A stretch of 64,000 nt of DNA from Candidatus Dojkabacteria bacterium (lineage in GTDB: Bacteria; Patescibacteriota; Dojkabacteria; SC72; JAHDCA01), in NCBI GenBank assembly GCA_030583845.1, contig CP129478.1:715686-779685 (forward strand). Reading direction: 5' to 3'. Below, one piece after another: positions 38,158 through 48,501 of this stretch. The translations under genes and the position numbers were made by a program. The notes beneath the pieces are model-generated. The model saw only the letters and a program-made list of their open reading frames with translations, searched no databases and was not told the origin of the DNA. Every line of letters starts with the position of its first letter. Position 1 is the first letter of the stretch.

Positions 38158-38991
38158 CTACCGTGGTTTCTCTCCCGAAAACACTCCATACTCCAGCACA
38201 CCTTTCTCAATCAAAAACTTACTATTCCTCGCCGACACCGTATGTCCAAGCGATCCATAGGTCAGCCTAGCCTTCTCCAGCAAATAGATCACAGGCAACA
38301 TGATTGTCCCATATCGATAGTAGATATCTAAAGTCTTCTTTACCCCCTCATTCTTACTGTCAAACTTAACATCCTTAAACCCCACAGACTCCATATCCTC
38401 ATGGAATCTCTCCTTAAACGCCAGATTATCCAGCGCAAACCCATCCAGAAATTCTTTATAAACTTTCTCCTCTTTTACGGAGAGCTTCTCTTTGATCCTA
38501 TACGCATCCAGCACTGCTACCCTGCCTTTTGGTCGGAGTAGTCGGTACGCCTCCTTCAGGAAATCCCGCTTATCAATTGCATAGCAAACACTTTCTATGC
38601 CAAAAATCTTGTCGAACGAACCATCCTCAAATTTCGTGTCGGTGTAATCCCGTAACAGAAATTTAACTCTGTCTGCTGCTGGTGAACCAGCTGCATACTG
38701 TTCAGCAAGCGAAAGCTGTGAAGGTACTACAGTTATCCCAGTAACCTCTGTATCAAATCCCTCTGCGATCATCAATGAAGTCCCCCCGACACCGCACCCT
38801 GCATCAAGCACCTTGTCCCCATCCTTCACCTGCAAAGCCTTAATTACAACTCTACTCGTATTTAATGACGCATCTTTGTACTCGGTAATTCCTTCTTCCC
38901 AGATAGGATAGTGCAAATGGCGCACATTGCGATAGAATATATTCTTTGAGTAGTAATCGTTGATTGGATCTTCTGAGAGTCTTATCTCCAT
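38158..38991 (-). CDS. Class I SAM-dependent methyltransferase (CFA-synthase/CMAS-like family)
   Basis: Motif I VLDAGCGVGGTSLMIAE. The post-I motif is EVTGITV. The probable start is MEIRLSEDPINDYYSKN. The ORF-track start at 39063 lies further upstream. Confidence 0.7.
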   Translation of the reverse strand: MEIRLSEDPINDYYSKNIFYRNVRHLHYPIWEEGITEYKDASLNTSRVVIKALQVKDGDKVLDAGCGVGGTSLMIAEGFDTEVTGITVVPSQLSLAEQYAAGSPAADRVKFLLRDYTDTKFEDGSFDKIFGIESVCYAIDKRDFLKEAYRLLRPKGRVAVLDAYRIKEKLSVKEEKVYKEFLDGFALDNLAFKERFHEDMESVGFKDVKFDSKNEGVKKTLDIYYRYGTIMLPVIYLLEKARLTYGSLGHTVSARNSKFLIEKGVLEYGVFSGEKPR

Positions 38992-39167
38992 ATGAGATAT
39001 AGTACATTTTTTTAACAGAATTGTCGCCGTATCAGCTTCCTGACTGATGTCACCTATTATCACAGGTGGTGATTCTAGCCAGTCATATCAAATATTTATG
39101 CATAGTAAATCACTTAACGCACCCATACCTACCCCCTTCGCCCTTGATAGAGTAAAATAGTACTCAC

Positions 39168-40787
39168 ATGAACCAGAAACTCAAAATCTTCACAATCGTA
39201 ATGGCCCTTGGAACATTCGTGGTTGTCCTCGACAACACCATAATGAATGTCTCCATCCAGGCTCTCGTCCAAGACCTCAACACCACAGTAACTGGCGTCC
39301 AGACAGCGATCGCGTTAAACGCACTCATGATGGCGGCGTTTGTGCTTTTCGGCGGGAAGCTTGCCGACATTATCGGCATGAAGAAGACATTTATGACGGG
39401 TGTGCTGATCTATATCGCGGGAAGTCTCACTGCTTCATTTAGCAACAATCTGGGGGTATTCATACTTGGATGGTGTCTGATACAAGGGTTTGGGGCGGCG
39501 ATGATGCTGCCAAATGTGCAGACACTTATCCGTGCTGTACTGCATGGGGAGGCTAGGGCGAAGGCATATGGCGCAATGGCGGCAGTGAATGCAATCGCTG
39601 CAGCATTGGGGCCAGTGATCGGTGGCTTCTTGACGACATATTTCTCGTGGAGATGGGCATTCCGTATGGAGGTAGCTTTCCTGCTCTTCATCCTGGTGAT
39701 GAATCACTATATACCTAAAGATAAAGCGATTACGAAGAAGGTCGGTATCGATGGGTGGGGACTCGTACTTCAGGCTGGAGCCATGGTTTCGATTGTGCTT
39801 GGTATCTTGATGATCTCAGACTACGGTGCATTTATGGCAAAGCAGCCGGTGATTATTAACGGCATAAATATTACTGAAATGGGATTGGGGCTCTCGCCGG
39901 TCGTATGGCTGGTAGGTCTCGGCTTGGTGTTGCTAATGCTATTTATCCATGTAGAGAACAGCAAGCTTGAGAAAGGGAAGCCTTCGCTCGTGCATGTGGC
40001 GCTGTTCAAAATCCGTGATTTTGTGACAGGCTTGAAGGTAAGGAGCATGCAGGTATTTCTCGTAGCTGGAATACTCTTCTCGATGCCGCTTTTCTTGCAG
40101 GTGACTTTTGAGATATCGGCCTTTGAGACTGGCTTAGCTTTGTTACCGCTATCAATTAGCCTGGTGATCGGATCGTTTATCGGTGTGCGCATGGCCAAGA
40201 AATATCTGCCGAAAAATATTGTGCGGCTTGGAGCACTGATAGTGATGGCTGGATCGGTGATCTTAATGGCTCTGGTTACAAATAGTAGCGAGCCTGCAGA
40301 GATCGGGCTCGGCTTGATAGTATTTGGATTTGGCCTCGCGTTGATTGGCTCACAGATCGTGAACCTGATCCTCTCATCGGTCACGCCGAAGGAGACAGCC
40401 GAGGCATCTGGAATTACCAGCACTCTTGAGCAGCTTGGCAATTCTCTTGGTGTAGCAATCCTTGGATCGGTCTTAGTTGTAGCGCTTTCATTTTCACTAA
40501 CCCAGCAGCTAAATGCCGACACAAGCCTGCCTGCTGATATCCGTGAGAAAGCCCAGGCAGCTGTAAATGATGGGGTGGAGATCCTTTCAAATTCTCAAAT
40601 CGAAGAGCAGCTCTCTGATCTAGACCCAGAAGTTGAAGAGCAGGTACTGCAGATGTATGATAGCGCGCGCACAAATGCATTTAGGGTTACAATGTTGAGC
40701 GTGGGCTTTATTGGGCTATTGATGTTTATAACGGCAGCATCCTTGCCGGAGCGGAAGTTGGTTGAGGGGATGGAGAATTCGGCTTAG
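39168..40787 (+). CDS. MFS transporter, DHA2 (EmrB/QacA, 14-TMS) family
   Basis: 539 aa. The N-terminus MALGTFVVVLDNTIMNVSIQAL and motif A-like GKLADIIGMKK. It has 14 hydrophobic segments. Confidence 0.85.
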   Translation: MNQKLKIFTIVMALGTFVVVLDNTIMNVSIQALVQDLNTTVTGVQTAIALNALMMAAFVLFGGKLADIIGMKKTFMTGVLIYIAGSLTASFSNNLGVFILGWCLIQGFGAAMMLPNVQTLIRAVLHGEARAKAYGAMAAVNAIAAALGPVIGGFLTTYFSWRWAFRMEVAFLLFILVMNHYIPKDKAITKKVGIDGWGLVLQAGAMVSIVLGILMISDYGAFMAKQPVIINGINITEMGLGLSPVVWLVGLGLVLLMLFIHVENSKLEKGKPSLVHVALFKIRDFVTGLKVRSMQVFLVAGILFSMPLFLQVTFEISAFETGLALLPLSISLVIGSFIGVRMAKKYLPKNIVRLGALIVMAGSVILMALVTNSSEPAEIGLGLIVFGFGLALIGSQIVNLILSSVTPKETAEASGITSTLEQLGNSLGVAILGSVLVVALSFSLTQQLNADTSLPADIREKAQAAVNDGVEILSNSQIEEQLSDLDPEVEEQVLQMYDSARTNAFRVTMLSVGFIGLLMFITAASLPERKLVEGMENSA

Positions 40788-40801
40788 TTGCCTCGACTGC
40801 G

Positions 40802-41303
40802 ATGAATAGATTTACTGTAGTATTCCTACTAGACAAAAAGTATTCAAAGCTGGTGCTGCTCAAAAGAGCCTCCTGGATGAGCTTTGCCCCGAACCGATGC
40901 ACAGGGATTGGGGGGGAGCGTTGAGCCTGGTGAGGATTATCCTGAGGGTGCATTGAGAGAGCTTGAAGAGGAAACCGGAATAAAGAGTAGCGACATAGAA
41001 GAGTTCAGAATGATCGGCTTATTTACATTCAAGGGAGGAAAAGGCACTTACTGGGAGAATGGCTATGAGATCGGTTATTTCGATGCGACCTATTCACATG
41101 CCGATCTACCCCCTTGCAATGAAGGCGATATAAGCTGGGTTGGACTAGATCAACTCGATTCTCTTGATATTCTTGACGATACAAAGGCAGCGATTGAGCT
41201 TTTTAAAGAGGAAGTGTTTGGCAAGGTGATTGAGTCACCCTATGTTGGAGAGTTTCTTGAATCGGGAAGGGGTTGTACGGATACAATTCTGCTTGCTAAC
41301 TAG
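40802..41303 (+). pseudogene. Nudix hydrolase interrupted by a frameshift at a G7 homopolymer (40910..40916)
   Basis: Frame A from ATG 40802 encodes MNRFTVVFLLDKKYSKLVLLKRAS...GIGG and runs into TGA. The +1 frame after the G-run carries the Nudix box GSVEPGEDYPEGALRELEEETGI and the rest of the domain. Changing the run by one G joins the two frames. Confidence 0.6.
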
Positions 41304-42625
41304 TTAGTCGATGGGGCGAGTATAAGATTTGTGGTTGTTGGCACATCCGAAGTGTTGTACACAATCAAGTAGCTTCTCACTTGCGCTGGCAAATTGAAGG
41401 CTTCACCATAGCGTAATATTCTCACTCCTTCCGGTTGTACGATTACGACGATATTTTCCGGATCTGTTCCTGAATAATACAATCCCTGCAACCCGGCTAG
41501 ATCTACTATCCCGTTACGCTCTGCTGGCAAAGTGACTTGGTAAACTCCATCCGAACGCCATTCAGGAGAGAGCACAGGCATGATCACTGAAAACGGTTCC
41601 TCCAATGGTGGATACCACCACCTATCAGGCGATAGGTTTCTTTGCAGATGTAGTGCTATACGAATTGCATGCAACTCTTCTAAAGTGGTTGCGCTTTGAA
41701 ATATATGGTCTTCTGGTGCGAGCTCTTTCAGAGCTGCCAAAAGATAATTTACATAACCCATCTGATAGTAAGACTGAGCGAGGAATGGATATTGCAACAG
41801 CGTCTTAATATCAGGGATACCAGGTGTACCACGTGAGTAAGCAGCATCGACAAAGATTGTCCAGGATCCATAATCTGCATATGCGAAGCTGTCAGTACGC
41901 GGAACACATCCAGACTCGTTGCATACTGTGTTGTATAAGCCATCGTAGTATCTCAGGTAGTTCGGGCTTTTATTCAGGTAGTTCAATTCAACTTGCATCA
42001 TATATAGCATCGTCATAGCTGTGCTCCAAGACTCTTGGCCGTTTTCATTCCCTGCTGACATATCGTGGAATGGTGGTCCATATTGCATCAGGTATCTATG
42101 GCCTAGTTCGTGGACAAGGACATGCTGTATGATATCCCCCATGGCAAACTCGTTTAGCGACAAAGTGATGTCGGCTCCATATGCGCCAGGCTCGCCTTTG
42201 AAAGCTGCACTGCCGCTCACTGCTTGATCATGTAAGATGAAAATCTTGGTTGTGCCATCTTGGTCGGCAGTGAGAGCAAACCCCATACCTTTGAGCCAAC
42301 TATTAAAATGGTCTGCAGTCTCAGTTATTGTTGCAATCTGCTCGGCAGAAAGTATTGTCTGCTCAGTGCCTTCTGCGGATATTGGTATGTGAAGCTTGAA
42401 CTGCCCAGATGGGCTGAGAACCTCGGTGTAGTTAGGGTTGGCCTCAAACCAGTCAATAGCGGTTTGACTATAATGTGTTCGTTCAGTTGTTGACTGCTCG
42501 CCTAACTCTGTTGCCGGCTGATTCGGTGGCTTTTGTTGTGAGTCACTACAGCCAGCCAATGCAATACCCAGCGCTGCAGTAATTAGAAAACGGCCTTTAT
42601 TCATGTATTGAGGGAACTTAATCAA
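41300..42625 (-). CDS. Zinc metalloprotease lipoprotein (HExxH), family unassigned
   Basis: Lipobox signal ITAALGIALAGCSD. HExxH motif HVLVHELGHRY. 441 aa. It overlaps the 3' end of the Nudix gene by 4 nt on the opposite strand. Confidence 0.55.
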   Translation of the reverse strand: MIKFPQYMNKGRFLITAALGIALAGCSDSQQKPPNQPATELGEQSTTERTHYSQTAIDWFEANPNYTEVLSPSGQFKLHIPISAEGTEQTILSAEQIATITETADHFNSWLKGMGFALTADQDGTTKIFILHDQAVSGSAAFKGEPGAYGADITLSLNEFAMGDIIQHVLVHELGHRYLMQYGPPFHDMSAGNENGQESWSTAMTMLYMMQVELNYLNKSPNYLRYYDGLYNTVCNESGCVPRTDSFAYADYGSWTIFVDAAYSRGTPGIPDIKTLLQYPFLAQSYYQMGYVNYLLAALKELAPEDHIFQSATTLEELHAIRIALHLQRNLSPDRWWYPPLEEPFSVIMPVLSPEWRSDGVYQVTLPAERNGIVDLAGLQGLYYSGTDPENIVVIVQPEGVRILRYGEAFNLPAQVRSYLIVYNTSDVPTTTNLILAPSTN

Positions 42626-42683
42626 AGAAGAGTGAATTGTACACTATGGGACTATTGAGGGCAACTCTAATCAAGCACAAGCA

Positions 42684-42740
42684 GAAAATATTCTTTGAGT
42701 AGTAGTCGTAAATTGGATCTTTTTAAAGCCTTATCTTTAT
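42684..42740 (-). pseudogene. Relic fragment duplicating the first ~19 codons of the CFA-synthase-like methyltransferase gene (38932..38990)
   Basis: The minus-strand reading IRL*KDPIYDYYSKNIF compares with the intact gene's EIRLSEDPINDYYSKNIF. The 38-nt core is 35/38 identical and the whole ~57 nt about 80% identical. Confidence 0.5.
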
Positions 42741-42779
42741 AATATCTTACACAATCTGGAGATAGATATGTGATAACTG

Positions 42780-43547
42780 CTAATATTTGGCGAAATTTCG
42801 CATCGCTAAAGATGAGACACTCATCTCCGTCTCTTCGAGATACTTGTCTAGTCCGCTTCTGTTGATAAATTTACGAATCCTATCCTTAGCCTCCAACCCA
42901 GAGATTACAGAGGTTGTTTTAACTTCCAACCCACTTTCAAAATCCCTGATCATATCGATAGTAATCTCAAATTGTTCGTAGCTGTACAGTTTTCGGGTCT
43001 TCACTATTGTTACGAACTCCTTAAAGCTCATAAGGGTTAGAAGGCTATGAGTATTCTCATAATCGTCAACAGCAATCTCTTTTTCTAGAGTGGTTTCCTT
43101 TTTATATGGCTCTGCAAGTCGTTTCACACCGAGAGTCGTAATAATGCTGTCCTTATAACCAATCCGTTGCTCACGTATCCTTACTCCCTGTCCTTTGCCG
43201 GTCTCAAACCAGATACTCGTATGAGTACTATCGTTTATATCATTTGGCACATACCAGTGATCTGTTAACTCACCATTGTAGAGTAGTTTTGACCCTATCT
43301 TAATTAATATGTTTTCAATGGTTATGAGGTCAGTACATTTATAACGTAGCTCAATTGTAATCTCTTCGCTTACTGGTTCTTGATTTGCTACAAATCTATC
43401 AAGCTCTGACTGGTGGATTCTAACGTTATGTCCAAACTTTATAGCTGTTATGTCGCCATTCTTTATATAATTGCGTATAGTCTGCCAGTGAACCTTAAGG
43501 TACAGAGCGGCCTCCTTAATTGTGAGGAGCTTATCACTATTTATCAT
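42780..43547 (-). CDS. Fusion protein: N-terminal excisionase/MerR-type HTH DNA-binding domain plus C-terminal CYTH (CyaB/thiamine-triphosphatase-like) domain
   Basis: HTH: LTIKEAALYLKVHWQTIRNYIKNGDITAIKFGHNVRI. CYTH: EITIELRYK (ExExK-like start), basic RIRE, and the C-terminal acidic beta-strand motif FEITIDMIRDFESGLEVKT. Confidence 0.55.
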   Translation of the reverse strand: MINSDKLLTIKEAALYLKVHWQTIRNYIKNGDITAIKFGHNVRIHQSELDRFVANQEPVSEEITIELRYKCTDLITIENILIKIGSKLLYNGELTDHWYVPNDINDSTHTSIWFETGKGQGVRIREQRIGYKDSIITTLGVKRLAEPYKKETTLEKEIAVDDYENTHSLLTLMSFKEFVTIVKTRKLYSYEQFEITIDMIRDFESGLEVKTTSVISGLEAKDRIRKFINRSGLDKYLEETEMSVSSLAMRNFAKY

Positions 43548-43592
43548 ATATTTATTATATCCAATGATAAGTGATAATGCTATTTTGAGTGA

Positions 43593-44423
43593 ATGACGAA
43601 GAATCAGAAGCTACTAAAAGAGCTATATGGAATTACACCGAAAGACTTTAAGTCGTTAATCCCTAATGATCTGGTCCATTTAGTTTCGGAAATGCATATA
43701 GTCAAGAGATATGTGTCCCCAGGATATATCCCAGAGGGGCTTATTAAGGATAACCTGTATATGCATCTCGAGAGATTGATTATATTGGCCACAGAGATAT
43801 ATATTCCTCCTATGGATGGAGACACGCTAACGCGCACGCTCTGGGTTCATGATGTTGGTGAGATGGGGAAGGCTAACGATGTGATAAATGTCGAGAAGTC
43901 TGATAAACCCAATAGGAGGGTAAATGAAAAAATGTCGGAGGAAGTTGTCGCAAAGGGAATGTTGTCAGAAGAGGATTATAAGCTTCTTTTACAATTTAGA
44001 CAGGTATCCGATAGCTTTGAGAAGGAAGTCCCAGTCAATGTATCAAAGGAATTTGTCGTCGCTAAGGTTCTAGATTTTATAGAAAATCCAATTGACTTCT
44101 TCTATTGGTACACCAAATGGATAAGGAAAGGGAATGTCTATGATGGTATTACCCCTCCTAAAGTACTTTTTACATACACTCTATTGCAAACTAAGAAAGT
44201 ATGGAGTTCTATAAATGGATCAGATTCAATATCTGAAGAGATAAAAGTATACTGCCTGAGCCTTCTTTGCCTGCAGATCGATGGTATATTAAGGCTTTGG
44301 GATGAGGTACCTGAGAATCAAATACCTAGGCCTATGGCTGATGAGCTTAAGCAGATGAGTCACTTCCTAATGGAGCATGACAAGAGAATCCTGACGAGAG
44401 GATTTCTCTTCAGTACCCATTAA
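43593..44423 (+). CDS. HD-domain phosphohydrolase (YfbR-like 5'-deoxynucleotidase family), putative
   Basis: H...HD...D pattern: NLYMHLERLIILATEIY ... TLWVHDVGEMGKANDVINVEKSDK. 276 aa. It is divergent from the HTH-CYTH gene with a 45-nt spacer. Confidence 0.5.
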   Translation: MTKNQKLLKELYGITPKDFKSLIPNDLVHLVSEMHIVKRYVSPGYIPEGLIKDNLYMHLERLIILATEIYIPPMDGDTLTRTLWVHDVGEMGKANDVINVEKSDKPNRRVNEKMSEEVVAKGMLSEEDYKLLLQFRQVSDSFEKEVPVNVSKEFVVAKVLDFIENPIDFFYWYTKWIRKGNVYDGITPPKVLFTYTLLQTKKVWSSINGSDSISEEIKVYCLSLLCLQIDGILRLWDEVPENQIPRPMADELKQMSHFLMEHDKRILTRGFLFSTH

Positions 44424-44466
44424 ACTCACATTCGAGCTGCCGCCGCTTTTCAAATCACTCACAATA

Positions 44467-44475
44467 TGCTATACT
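44467..44475 (+). promoter_or_regulatory. Candidate extended -10 element (TGCTATACT) about 160 nt upstream of the DEAD-box helicase gene
   Basis: TGnTATACT match. The long leader is consistent with cold-shock-type helicase mRNAs. Confidence 0.25.
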
Positions 44476-44635
44476 CTGCTCCCTCTAAAAGGCTTAAAGA
44501 ATTTCCAAAAGATAAGTAATTAAGTGAGCCAGTTAGATTGGCTTGCGTCGTATAAAAGGTCTGCACTTCTATTCTGATTTGCCGCTATTACCATTTTGTC
44601 CGATGCAAATATATTAAATTTGTTCGGATAAAGTT

Positions 44636-45937
44636 ATGAACTACGAAAGTAGAGACTCTCAGCGCGGTAATTACCGTGGCAGACGAGATGGAGGCCAGCG
44701 CAGATCTGGTTCCAACCGTGGTGGGTATAGCCAAGGTGGCTATGGCCAAAACGGCTACAGCCAGGGTCGCAGAAGCGGCTACGGTGGAAGATCCCGATAT
44801 GGTGGTGGTCGACGTGGACGTGGCAGGTTTAAGGGAGCCCCAATAAGCCATGACCGATATGTGTCAAAAGCTGTAATCACAGAGACAAAGCCGTATGTAA
44901 GCGATATTACATTTGATACTTACAATTTCCATCCATCCCTTCACTCAAATATTAAGAGCAAGGGCTACAGTCGACCGACAGAAGTCCAGGAGAAGACCAT
45001 CAATGAGATTATGGCCGGTCGAAACGTGCTTGGAATCTCATCCACAGGCTCGGGCAAGACCGCTGCCTTCTTGATCCCATCTGTTAACAAGATGCTGGCA
45101 GACAGAAATCAGAAGCTGTTGGTAATTGCTCCTACGAGAGAGCTTGCAATGCAGATCGAGAGTGAGGCATTTTCACTGGTAAGAAATACACAGTTGAGAA
45201 CTTCACGCGTTATTGGTGGAGAGAGCATCGGCCGTCAGGCCAGCTACTTGAGGCGAAGACCGGAGATCGTGATCGGTACACCGGGACGATTGAAAGATAT
45301 GCATGACCGCAAGGCTCTTTACCTCAATGAATTTAACAACATCGTGTTAGATGAGGTAGATCGAATGCTCGATATGGGCTTCGTAGATGATATTCAGTTC
45401 TTGATCTCACAGATCTCGCAGGAGCGACAGGCACTGTTCTTCTCAGCGACAATCGACCAGCGAGTTGAGTCTATAGCCTCAGGACTTGCATCAGACTTTG
45501 TGAGCATCAAATTGAGCGAGAACCAGACAGCGCAAAATGTCGCGCAGGATATCGTAAAAGTGACCTCATATCAGGATAAGATTGAGAAGCTGCACGATAT
45601 GCTCAACCGCGAGGATGTGAATAAGACGCTTATATTTGTCGAAACAAAGCGCGAAGTTGATAAGGTGGAGCGACAGCTCCGTGATCGAGGCTTCGCAGTC
45701 GCCGGTATCCATGGTGATAAATCACAGAGTAAAAGAAAGCGAATTATTCAAGACTATCGCAACAACGCGGTCAAGATCTTGCTCGCTACCAATGTGGTCG
45801 CTCGAGGATTGGATGTGAAAGATATCACCCATGTGATCAATTTCGATGAGCCGGAGAGCTACGACGAGTATATTCATAGAATTGGGCGTACTGGCCGAAA
45901 CGGTAGGAGCGGTCAGGCGTATACCTTTGTATACTAG
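44636..45937 (+). CDS. DEAD-box ATP-dependent RNA helicase with an N-terminal Arg/Gly-rich (RGG-like) low-complexity extension
   Basis: Motifs: Q, GSGKTAAF (I), PTRELA, DEVD (II), SAT (III), HRIGRTGRNG (VI). The first ~70 aa are RGG/GYG repeats. The protein ends right after motif VI. Confidence 0.9.
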   Translation: MNYESRDSQRGNYRGRRDGGQRRSGSNRGGYSQGGYGQNGYSQGRRSGYGGRSRYGGGRRGRGRFKGAPISHDRYVSKAVITETKPYVSDITFDTYNFHPSLHSNIKSKGYSRPTEVQEKTINEIMAGRNVLGISSTGSGKTAAFLIPSVNKMLADRNQKLLVIAPTRELAMQIESEAFSLVRNTQLRTSRVIGGESIGRQASYLRRRPEIVIGTPGRLKDMHDRKALYLNEFNNIVLDEVDRMLDMGFVDDIQFLISQISQERQALFFSATIDQRVESIASGLASDFVSIKLSENQTAQNVAQDIVKVTSYQDKIEKLHDMLNREDVNKTLIFVETKREVDKVERQLRDRGFAVAGIHGDKSQSKRKRIIQDYRNNAVKILLATNVVARGLDVKDITHVINFDEPESYDEYIHRIGRTGRNGRSGQAYTFVY

Positions 45938-47748: not shown

Positions 47749-48501
47749 TTGATTTCAGTTGATTCTTCTAGCCGGGTCGAATATGATCCGACTATGGAGA
47801 ACATCAATATAAAACTTCACGATTTCCAGAAGCAAATTCTTGGCAAGCTAAGCCATGTAGTCGACGCGCGCTTTAACGACCTTCTGATCGAGGGTCTAGA
47901 AAGTGAGCATATGAACTACCACCTGAAGAAGCTGATTGACCTCGGAATGGTTGAGAAATCGCAAAATAAATATCGGCTTACTGATAAGGGTAAAGATTGC
48001 TCCAACATGATGGACGACAATGTCGAGTTTATCGAACGTCAGCCGAAGACCTCTGTGCTGCTAAGAATCCTGCGCAAAAATGATGAAGGGGTTGTTGAGC
48101 AATTGGTGTGTCGTAGATTGAGGCAGCCATACTATGGCAAAGTCGGTCGACTAACCGGCAAAGTACGGTTTGGTGAGGAGTTAGAAGAGGCTGCGCGTCG
48201 AGAGCTGTACGAAGAAACCGGCCTGCTTGCAAAGGCAGTGATCTTAGAAAATGTTTATCACAAGCTACGCCACAATGTGGAGGGTGAGTATCTGCAGGAT
48301 AATCTTTTCTACAGATTTCTGATTAAGGATACTTATGGTAATTTGATTACAAAGACCCCACATCAAGAGAATTTCTGGATAAATGTCGAGTCATTCGACC
48401 CAAAAGAATACGACATGTTTGATGATTTTGAGTTAATGAACAACTACGAGCCTGACATCCTCTCATTCTCGGAAATAAATACTCTGGCTCAAGATTATTA
48501 A
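47749..48501 (+). CDS. Nudix hydrolase with N-terminal winged-helix domain
   Basis: wHTH-like region: LSHVVDARFNDLLIEGLESEHMNYHLKKLIDLGMVEKSQNKYRLTDKG. Nudix box: GKVRFGEELEEAARRELYEETGLLA. The start may be ATG 47794 (MENINIKL). Confidence 0.6.
   Translation: MISVDSSSRVEYDPTMENINIKLHDFQKQILGKLSHVVDARFNDLLIEGLESEHMNYHLKKLIDLGMVEKSQNKYRLTDKGKDCSNMMDDNVEFIERQPKTSVLLRILRKNDEGVVEQLVCRRLRQPYYGKVGRLTGKVRFGEELEEAARRELYEETGLLAKAVILENVYHKLRHNVEGEYLQDNLFYRFLIKDTYGNLITKTPHQENFWINVESFDPKEYDMFDDFELMNNYEPDILSFSEINTLAQDY

Follow-up and report, generated by a model that had tools for sequence, protein, structure and literature searches.

What does an enzyme-like tunnel domain do when it is joined to a DNA-binding domain, and does such a fusion work together with the hydrolase gene that lies beside it? 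Both questions are raised by a pair of divergent genes in a 64-kb stretch of chromosomal DNA (hereafter the window, meaning the whole stretch analysed) from Candidatus Dojkabacteria (Patescibacteria, candidate phyla radiation, CPR). One gene (positions 42780–43547, minus strand, stop codon at 42780–42782) encodes a 255-amino-acid (aa) protein in which an N-terminal helix-turn-helix (HTH) of the HTH_17 type is fused to a CYTH domain; the other (43593–44423, plus strand) encodes a 276-aa protein predicted to be an HD_3/YfbR-like phosphohydrolase. The listing of open reading frames (ORFs) gives the two frames, with 45 nucleotides (nt) between them, exactly at the coordinates assigned to them in the original prediction, which was made from the sequence by itself. 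The fusion gene was characterized further by Pfam and NCBIfam searches and the HD gene by a family profile, and both by structural models (AlphaFold2, AF2), Foldseek comparisons and the ratio of nonsynonymous to synonymous substitutions (dN/dS). CYTH domains are known as enzymes, some of them on their own and others joined to CHAD, HD, kinase or exopolyphosphatase domains. The explanation that we favor, with somewhat better than even confidence, is that the two are separate genes that became neighbors within one lineage, the HTH-CYTH protein acting as a one-component triphosphate sensor-regulator and the HD protein being a phosphohydrolase of the YfbR/HDDC2 type. Should the HTH-CYTH family indeed prove to be a ligand-gated regulator, the bacterial one-component systems would gain a new sensor domain, and there would be a handle on the sensing of phosphate or nucleotide status in ultra-small Patescibacteria.

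Fold and metal sites of the HTH-CYTH protein

Residues 7–56 of the fusion protein (43380–43529, minus strand) are predicted to form a DNA-binding winged HTH of the HTH_17/excisionase type. This region matches HTH_17 in Pfam (PF12728) at 49.6 bits against a cut-off of 27 (E 4.9e-13) and the NCBIfam excisionase model TIGR01764 at 51.6 bits against a cut-off of 28.8 (E 8.8e-14), and it is through the HTH part that a profile of the HTH-CYTH family, searched against the PDB, matched the Xis-like protein Gp37 (4j2n) at 4.4e-7. In the AF2 model of the whole protein (pLDDT 86, pTM 0.72), helices at residues 10–17 and 21–29 are followed by a β-hairpin at 36–45 and a third helix at 46–54. The N-terminal 56 residues thus resemble the Xis-like HTH_17 proteins, with the same predicted winged-HTH topology. 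Across 42 family members H20, W21, Q22 and R25 of this domain are invariant and T23 is nearly so. Excisionase and MerR-like small proteins act by themselves, in DNA architecture or regulation, whereas in HTH-CYTH the HTH is fused to an enzyme-like, ligand-binding tunnel.

The tunnel is predicted to comprise residues ~60–255 (42783–43370, minus strand), a CYTH or triphosphate tunnel domain of the triphosphatase type. The Pfam CYTH model (PF01928) matches residues 118–234 at 25.0 bits, which is marginal against a gathering threshold of 23.2. The family profile matched CYTH structures in the PDB across 1e-9 to 1e-5, among them 1yem (1e-9), 2een (3e-9), YpAC-IV (3e-8) and SaTTM (1.7e-6). Past residue 60 the model continues from the winged HTH into a barrel of eight long strands, for which Foldseek returned the triphosphate tunnel metalloenzyme (TTM) structures SaTTM, YpAC-IV, Pfu-838710, PH1012 and PH1819 at E 7.5e-11 to 2e-8 and target-normalised TM scores (TMt) of ~0.74–0.82; the top match was SaTTM (7ns9; E 7.5e-11, TMt 0.75), and the Pfu structure 1yem reached a TMt of 0.81. 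That an HTH of the excisionase/MerR type is fused to a CYTH domain had been proposed from the sequence, with a failure of the C-terminal domain to thread onto the tunnel fold as a refuting outcome; the domain does thread, and the profiles (both above threshold), the HTH topology of the model and the structural matches bear the proposal out. The best fold and profile matches, SaTTM (Saci_0718), Pfu-838710 (1yem), PH1819 (2een) and PH1012 (2dc4), share the eight-stranded tunnel with HTH-CYTH and differ from it in being single-domain proteins of ~180 aa with no DNA-binding domain.

The family to which the fusion protein belongs is small, with ~44 clusters at 90% identity and proteins of ~250 aa, and all of its taxon-labelled members come from Patescibacteria. 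Loci were assembled from look-ups of the encoding contigs, from species-representative genomes (7 loci, labelled Dojkabacteria, Saccharibacteria or ‘Patescibacteria group’) and from metagenomes (25 loci); the 49 loci scanned were reduced to 28 distinct ones after removal of duplicates, many of them with flanks of 5–10 kb. A literature search, limited in extent, found no description of the family or of a CYTH domain fused to a sequence-specific DNA-binding domain, and HTH-CYTH is a rare, apparently undescribed family. Two metagenomic loci carry a second CYTH paralogue of ~195 aa without an HTH, a few kb from the HTH-CYTH gene (L034, 5840–6439; L047, 17905–18489), which matches the HTH-CYTH family profile at E ~1e-20. 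A phage or defence origin was considered and rejected, as PHROG matches are confined to the HTH part and PADLOC returned only mad1, an HTH-only protein, on that same part at 25.7 bits.

The chemistry expected of the tunnel can be read from residues defined in SaTTM, where E7 and E135 bind metal 1, E5, E7 and E137 bind metal 2, which activates the water, and R56, R58, K69, K110 and R112 are the basic ligands of the triphosphate (PMC8233210). Class IV adenylate cyclases are distinguished by the motif HFxxxxExExK, a small residue in place of the central Arg of xRxR and ExA on strand β8, while triphosphatases retain RxR and ExE (PMC8233210, Vogt et al. 2021). Equivalent columns were located in a 42-sequence alignment of the HTH-CYTH family and in a 13-sequence one that included the genome loci. 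In the CYTH part of the larger alignment E66, R68, R123, K142, K183, R185, D198 and E208 are invariant, and 41 of the 42 sequences have R125. The layout ExEx[K/R], RxR, K, KxR, ExE is shared by the family and the SaTTM cluster, both of which are without the cyclase determinants. No HF motif was found six and five residues before E64 in any of the 42 sequences (residues 58 and 59 of the window protein are P and V), and neither cyclase-type replacement occurs among them, R123 being invariant and position 210 never Ala. Because the HF motif is absent, R123 is invariant and E210 is present in 40 of 42 members, the family is, by these published sequence determinants, of the triphosphatase type and not an adenylate cyclase.

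An enzyme of the class IV (CyaB) type carrying a DNA-binding domain would be the reading closest to existing annotation. YpAC-IV (Yersinia pestis CyaB, 2fjt/3n0y), the source of the automatic annotations, has the same CYTH fold and is among the nearest structures (TMt 0.74–0.78), TIGR00318 cyaB is the best NCBIfam enzyme model for the protein, and JGI names several family members ‘predicted adenylyl cyclase CyaB’. The TIGR00318 score, however, is 32.3 bits against an equivalog cut-off of 57.95, and HTH-CYTH shows none of three defining features of YpAC-IV: it has no HFxxxxExExK motif, it keeps the central Arg and, in place of ExA, it has ExE in the family and ExK in the window protein. SaTTM, the top structural match, moreover produces no cyclic nucleotides (PMC8233210). 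We consider a cyclase very improbable, and the automatic name is probably a wrong annotation.

Within this conserved framework the window protein departs from its family at two positions. Position 64, the first Glu of ExExK and the equivalent of the SaTTM metal-2 ligand E5, is Glu in 39 of 42 sequences, Lys in one, and Thr solely in the window protein and P0001, its 94%-identical relative (codon at 43356–43358, minus strand). Position 210, the second Glu of the β8 ExE and the equivalent of the metal-2 ligand E137, is Lys solely in the same two proteins (codon at 42918–42920, minus strand). The window protein therefore has Thr and Lys where the SaTTM cluster has the two Glu residues that serve metal 2 only, as well as Arg for the Lys of ExExK. 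Its complete ExExK hallmark is not present, since of its three residues the first Glu is gone and only the second Glu and the basic one remain (T64-x-E66-x-R68, compared with E-x-E-x-R in 39 of 42), and nor is the β8 ExE, which is replaced by E208-V-K210 (GLEVK). The metal-1 ligands E66 and E208 and the full basic set for triphosphate binding (R68, R123, R125, K142, K183 and R185) are kept. These columns also refine the motifs named in the original prediction: the ExExK-like EITIELRYK was mis-registered, E62 not being the conserved Glu, and the motif is degenerate; the terminal acidic strand does carry D198 and E208, yet the window protein has Lys where the family has its second Glu.

A comparison with L001, one of four contigs (L001–L004) of a single close relative whose DNA is 86% identical to the window and whose HTH-CYTH and HD proteins are 94% and 83% identical, gave a dN/dS of 0.059 for the whole fusion gene, with 0.032 in its HTH portion and 0.065 in its CYTH portion. 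With a ratio of 0.06, we reject the idea that T64 and K210 arose in a decaying pseudogene. The combination of E64T and E210K with strong purifying selection suggests a ligand-binding, non-hydrolysing sensor, restricted to the window lineage. In such a mechanism the window protein would bind a Mg-triphosphate ligand, which might be inorganic triphosphate (PPPi), a nucleoside triphosphate (NTP) or the end of a polyphosphate, with poor or no hydrolysis, and would act as a one-component sensor-regulator. Whatever their effect, E64/E210 in most members and T64/K210 in the window constitute a natural variant pair for the two-metal TTM mechanism.

Several points weigh against a sensor of this kind. 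Loss of the metal-2 ligands is no proof of inactivity, as the residue equivalent to E137 is Ala in class IV cyclases; E62, on the same face of the strand, might partly replace the lost Glu; and the CYTH assignment itself has a Pfam score that barely exceeds its threshold. The protein could instead be an active triphosphatase, using one metal or assisted by lysine, which its HTH tethers to DNA or to 5'-triphosphate ends without any regulatory role. The family as a whole retains every TTM catalytic residue, the CYTH part is under strong purifying selection, and the genes downstream at other loci often encode nucleotide enzymes (thymidylate-kinase-like in L006–L009, a metallophosphoesterase in L012). 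The RNA triphosphatase Cet1 is itself a TTM, but the ligands that serve only metal 2, both of which the window copy is without, have been described as necessary for catalysis in TTMs and in thiamine triphosphatase (PMC8233210). The ability of HTH_17 domains to bind DNA sequence-specifically and the operator-like repeat at the gene’s own promoter, described below, also argue against a tethered enzyme, which we regard as rather unlikely.

The palindrome in the shared promoter region

A candidate operator is present at 43531–43577 (not assigned to a strand) in the form of a nested palindrome, TTATCAC-tat-TTATCAT-N16-ATGATAA-GTGATAA. This sequence reaches across the start codon of HTH-CYTH, the divergent promoter region and a TATAAT box that precedes that codon by 7 nt, and it overlaps promoter-like sites of both the HTH-CYTH and HD genes. 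The inverted heptamer pair is unique in the 64 kb (0.08 expected). Folded as DNA, the palindrome has an energy of −10.1 kcal/mol, compared with −3.1 ± 1.6 kcal/mol for shuffled sequences (z = −4.46), and none of 200 shuffles was as stable. It is kept in L001 with one change in an arm.

Upstream regions were then compared family-wide at 23 distinct HTH-CYTH loci. The core TATCAY was counted 13 times in the 70 nt upstream, against a shuffle mean of 2.2 and a maximum of 9 in 2000 trials; five loci have it at −37 and one has it at −36, and another copy often follows 10 nt further downstream. Perfect complementarity of 8–10 nt between approximately −42 to −28 and codons 1–5 was found in 6 of the 23 loci (Fisher-combined p = 0.0014). 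These sequence patterns lend moderate support to the palindrome as a candidate operator for autoregulation. TTMs close when they bind a ligand, and in the mechanism that we propose occupancy of the tunnel would alter how the HTH binds the TTATCAY/RTGATAA palindrome, which overlaps the promoter and start codon of its own gene. With only 45 nt between the two genes, the effect may extend to the HD promoter, which anything bound at the palindrome would probably influence.

A fuller form of this model would hold that in the Dojkabacteria lineage the CYTH domain was turned into a non-catalytic triphosphate sensor by E64T and E210K, that it reads PPPi, NTP or polyphosphate, and that it controls both its own gene and the HD gene through the palindrome. 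We view this combination as possible, although doubtful as a whole. If true, it would make this the first CYTH domain shown to serve as the ligand domain of a transcription factor, and a regulator responding to energy or nucleotide status in an organism with very few regulators.

Three other loci (L029, L030 and L035) have tandem direct repeats, TATCAT(T)cATTATCAT, spaced by 10 nt at about −37 and −27 from the ATG, in the probable −10 region. Xis and BldC-type HTH_17 proteins bind direct repeats cooperatively, and the repeats at these loci recall that arrangement.

The operator interpretation has to be set against four observations. TATCAY at −37 occupies the position that TATAAT holds in other family loci, so that the signal is probably in part that of a −10 box; the palindrome's downstream arm also encodes the conserved M-S/N-D-K start; no more than about a quarter to a third of the loci have the inverted repeat; and its arms extend past the TATCAY core in a locus-specific manner (for example GCCTATCAC/GTGATAGGC in L018 and TAATCTATCA/TGATAGATTA in L035), a pattern that resembles base-pair covariation and could point to an RNA hairpin. 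The inverted repeat would in that case be no operator, and a 5'-leader hairpin would hide the start codon as an element of translational control or of transcript stability. Against such a hairpin, the arms in the window, L018 and L035 flank or overlap the best −10 box, so that the 5' arm probably falls outside the transcript, and no Rfam match supports it: a scan of 42500–44700 gave only sub-threshold noise (2dG-I, 21.9 bits against 51). We judge the hairpin improbable and retain the palindrome as a candidate operator.

The HD protein and its relation to the HTH-CYTH gene

The protein encoded across the 45-nt spacer is identical to QY318_03475, a hypothetical protein deposited for a metagenome-assembled genome of Candidatus Dojkabacteria and located on a 1.04-Mb contig, so that the window is chromosomal DNA. 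Direct profile searches with its 276 aa gave no Pfam or NCBIfam match at E ≤ 1, none in PADLOC and only noise in PHROGs, and a word-indexed search returned the protein itself and one 83% relative only. HMMER against 1.84 billion representatives, by comparison, recovered 111 clusters at E ≤ 1e-3, of which 50 reach E ≤ 1e-10, with proteins mostly of 230–280 aa. Sixty-five of these relatives (E 1e-38 to 1e-4) were aligned; 43 of the 65 match PF13023 HD_3 and 26 match PF12917 YfbR-like, and JGI names one relative ‘YfbR-like HD superfamily hydrolase’. A profile of the family matched HDDC2 (3.8e-8), 3kh1 (2.2e-5) and YfbR (5.5e-5), and further matches were to an oxetanocin-like protein, YGL101W, DatZ and OxsA.

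Residue conservation points in the same direction. R39, H58, H86 and E90 do not vary among the 65 aligned sequences; D87, D96 and D161 occur in at least 95% of them, E116 is nearly invariant and position 40 is almost always aromatic ([Y/F]40). The HD dyad itself, H86-D87 (43848–43853, plus strand), is conserved in the family together with R39, H58, E90, D96 and D161, and in the family profile it aligns to H77/D78 of HDDC2. We take E90 to be the counterpart of YfbR E72. The AF2 model (pLDDT 92) is all-helical, with a C-terminal helical extension of ~75–90 residues. In YfbR the metal is bound by H33, H68, D69 and D137, and R18, W19 and D77 contact the substrate (PMC8177086); R39, [Y/F]40, H58, H86, D87, D96 and D161 of the HD family parallel R18, W19, H33, H68, D69, D77 and D137 of YfbR, respectively. 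The extra conserved His of the dinuclear phosphodiesterase type was not found in the family alignment.

The closest known proteins are YfbR (the E. coli 5'-deoxynucleotidase), human HDDC2 and yeast YGK1, which the family profile matches. The window protein differs from them in scoring below the Pfam and NCBIfam thresholds, in being ~75–90 residues longer through its extra C-terminal helices and in superposing weakly on them. This last feature, with HDDC2 and YfbR as the best Foldseek matches at only E 0.09–1.2 and TMt ~0.5, tells against the assignment, as does the placing of D161 as fourth metal ligand, which comes from conservation and not from a residue-level alignment. The family profile and the conserved residues nonetheless support, by transitive homology, identification of the protein as a YfbR-like HD phosphohydrolase, and the 276-aa ‘hypothetical protein’ can be named as such. 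The gene has a dN/dS of 0.168 between the window and L001. Its product is most likely a mononuclear HD_3 5'-(deoxy)nucleotidase for nucleotide salvage or pool sanitation in an auxotrophic host with a tiny genome, as judged from these sequence features. The YfbR-like phosphohydrolase of the original prediction is in this way upheld, but the nuclease that it offered as an option finds no support in a residue set of the YfbR/HDDC2 monophosphatase type.

One member of the HD family, P0012 (L022, 5545–7050), carries an N-terminal SAM-dependent methyltransferase fused to the HD part. The same contig also has a canonical YfbR-like HD_3 gene, two HTH-NUDIX genes and a HicAB pair, and the window has an HTH-NUDIX gene at 47749–48501; nucleotide-sanitation genes seem to cluster in these genomes. 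P0012 was considered as a link between the HD family and the methyltransferase gene that neighbors the pair in the window and was rejected, the similarity being a generic Rossmann-fold one (E 0.62).

The remaining question is whether the two genes form a unit. The original prediction had proposed a nucleotide-signal-controlled regulator with its partner or a small conflict module, in which a nucleotide signal would be produced or detected by the CYTH domain, with the HD protein as an effector that breaks down nucleotides or nucleic acid. The divergent arrangement with 45 nt between the genes, the palindrome across their shared promoter region, the recombination junction that borders the region and the retention of the pair in the close relative are in its favor. 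Other members of the superfamily are also reported to have CYTH fused to HD (Iyer and Aravind 2002, as cited in PMC8233210), and because such fusions exist, a metabolic affinity between CYTH and HD chemistries in general is plausible.

Co-occurrence of the two genes elsewhere was therefore checked among the 28 distinct loci. The divergent pair, with the same 45-nt spacer, was found in the close relative only (L001–L004), and synteny with a relative just 14% diverged in DNA carries little information. No HD-family ORF was detected in the ~27 other distinct HTH-CYTH loci, with flanks of up to 10 kb searched by hmmsearch in six-frame ORFs, and all-against-all clustering within 5 kb revealed no neighbor family in more than three of the 28. 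The immediate neighbors of HTH-CYTH vary, including genes for an S1 protein, thymidylate-kinase-like and GreA-like proteins, a metallophosphoesterase, an integrase and a methyltransferase. Conversely, HTH-CYTH was not found in the five HD-family contexts examined, where the neighbors are AbiEii, an integrase, GroES/GroEL-HSP20 or NUDIX/HicAB. PADLOC gave only the generic HTH match noted above and none on the HD protein, the HD signature is that of a monophosphatase, and the CYTH domain is without cyclase determinants.

Since, of the loci scanned, L001–L004 alone have an HD relative beside HTH-CYTH, the pairing is a lineage-specific adjacency, and the two genes are not supported as a conserved two-gene module or conflict system. 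We consider a functional unit improbable, and the favored explanation remains that of separate genes. Lineage-specific co-regulation through the shared 45-nt promoter region could be the sole way in which the proposed partnership survives. The suggestion of a conflict module should not be carried forward; the interest of the locus lies in the HTH-CYTH family itself.

Two of the varying neighborhoods contain nucleotide or phosphate enzymes that abut the HTH-CYTH stop codon: a thymidylate-kinase-like gene lies directly downstream in L006–L009 with a 2-nt gap, and a metallophosphoesterase gene lies directly downstream in L012 with a 7-nt gap. These could be variable operon partners.

The downstream junction and neighboring features

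Downstream of the HTH-CYTH gene lies a relic (42683–42741, minus strand), recognized by tblastn and by blastn against L001 as a 59-nt duplicate of the 5' end of a methyltransferase gene, and the relic gene fragment noted at this place in the original prediction is thereby accounted for. Positions 42684–42740 encode codons 1–19 of the methyltransferase; the complete gene occupies 38167–38991. The relic and the other copy, at 38934–38992, are identical at 49 of 59 positions and represent a direct duplication. A CMAS/UbiE-type methyltransferase gene directly follows HTH-CYTH in L001, and the 3.7-kb segment that separates the two genes in the window (38993–42682, not assigned to a strand) is missing there. 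Either an insertion with a long duplication took place in the window, or a repeat-mediated deletion in the relative. The pair had been placed at a recombination junction, which is correct in that a junction exists downstream of HTH-CYTH, but it does not fall at the boundary between the HTH-CYTH and HD genes.

The 3.7-kb segment contains an MFS transporter gene, a frameshifted NUDIX gene and a 441-aa ORF with an HExxH motif. The NUDIX gene (40802–41303, plus strand) is split over two frames, with the N-terminal 40 codons in 40802–40924 and the remainder, including the NUDIX box, in 40884–41303; it is either a frameshifted pseudogene or the result of an assembly error, and to the NUDIX homologue in L001 only residues 58–177 align, at 65% identity. 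The 441-aa ORF (41300–42625, minus strand) has a lipoprotein-like N-terminus and the HExxH motif as VHELGH; its match to Peptidase_M57 is sub-threshold only, and no homologue was found in the L001 contig. In base composition, the kilobase at 43001–44000, which covers the HTH-CYTH/HD pair, is the most AT-rich nearby, with a GC fraction of 0.384 compared with ~0.44 for the whole window.

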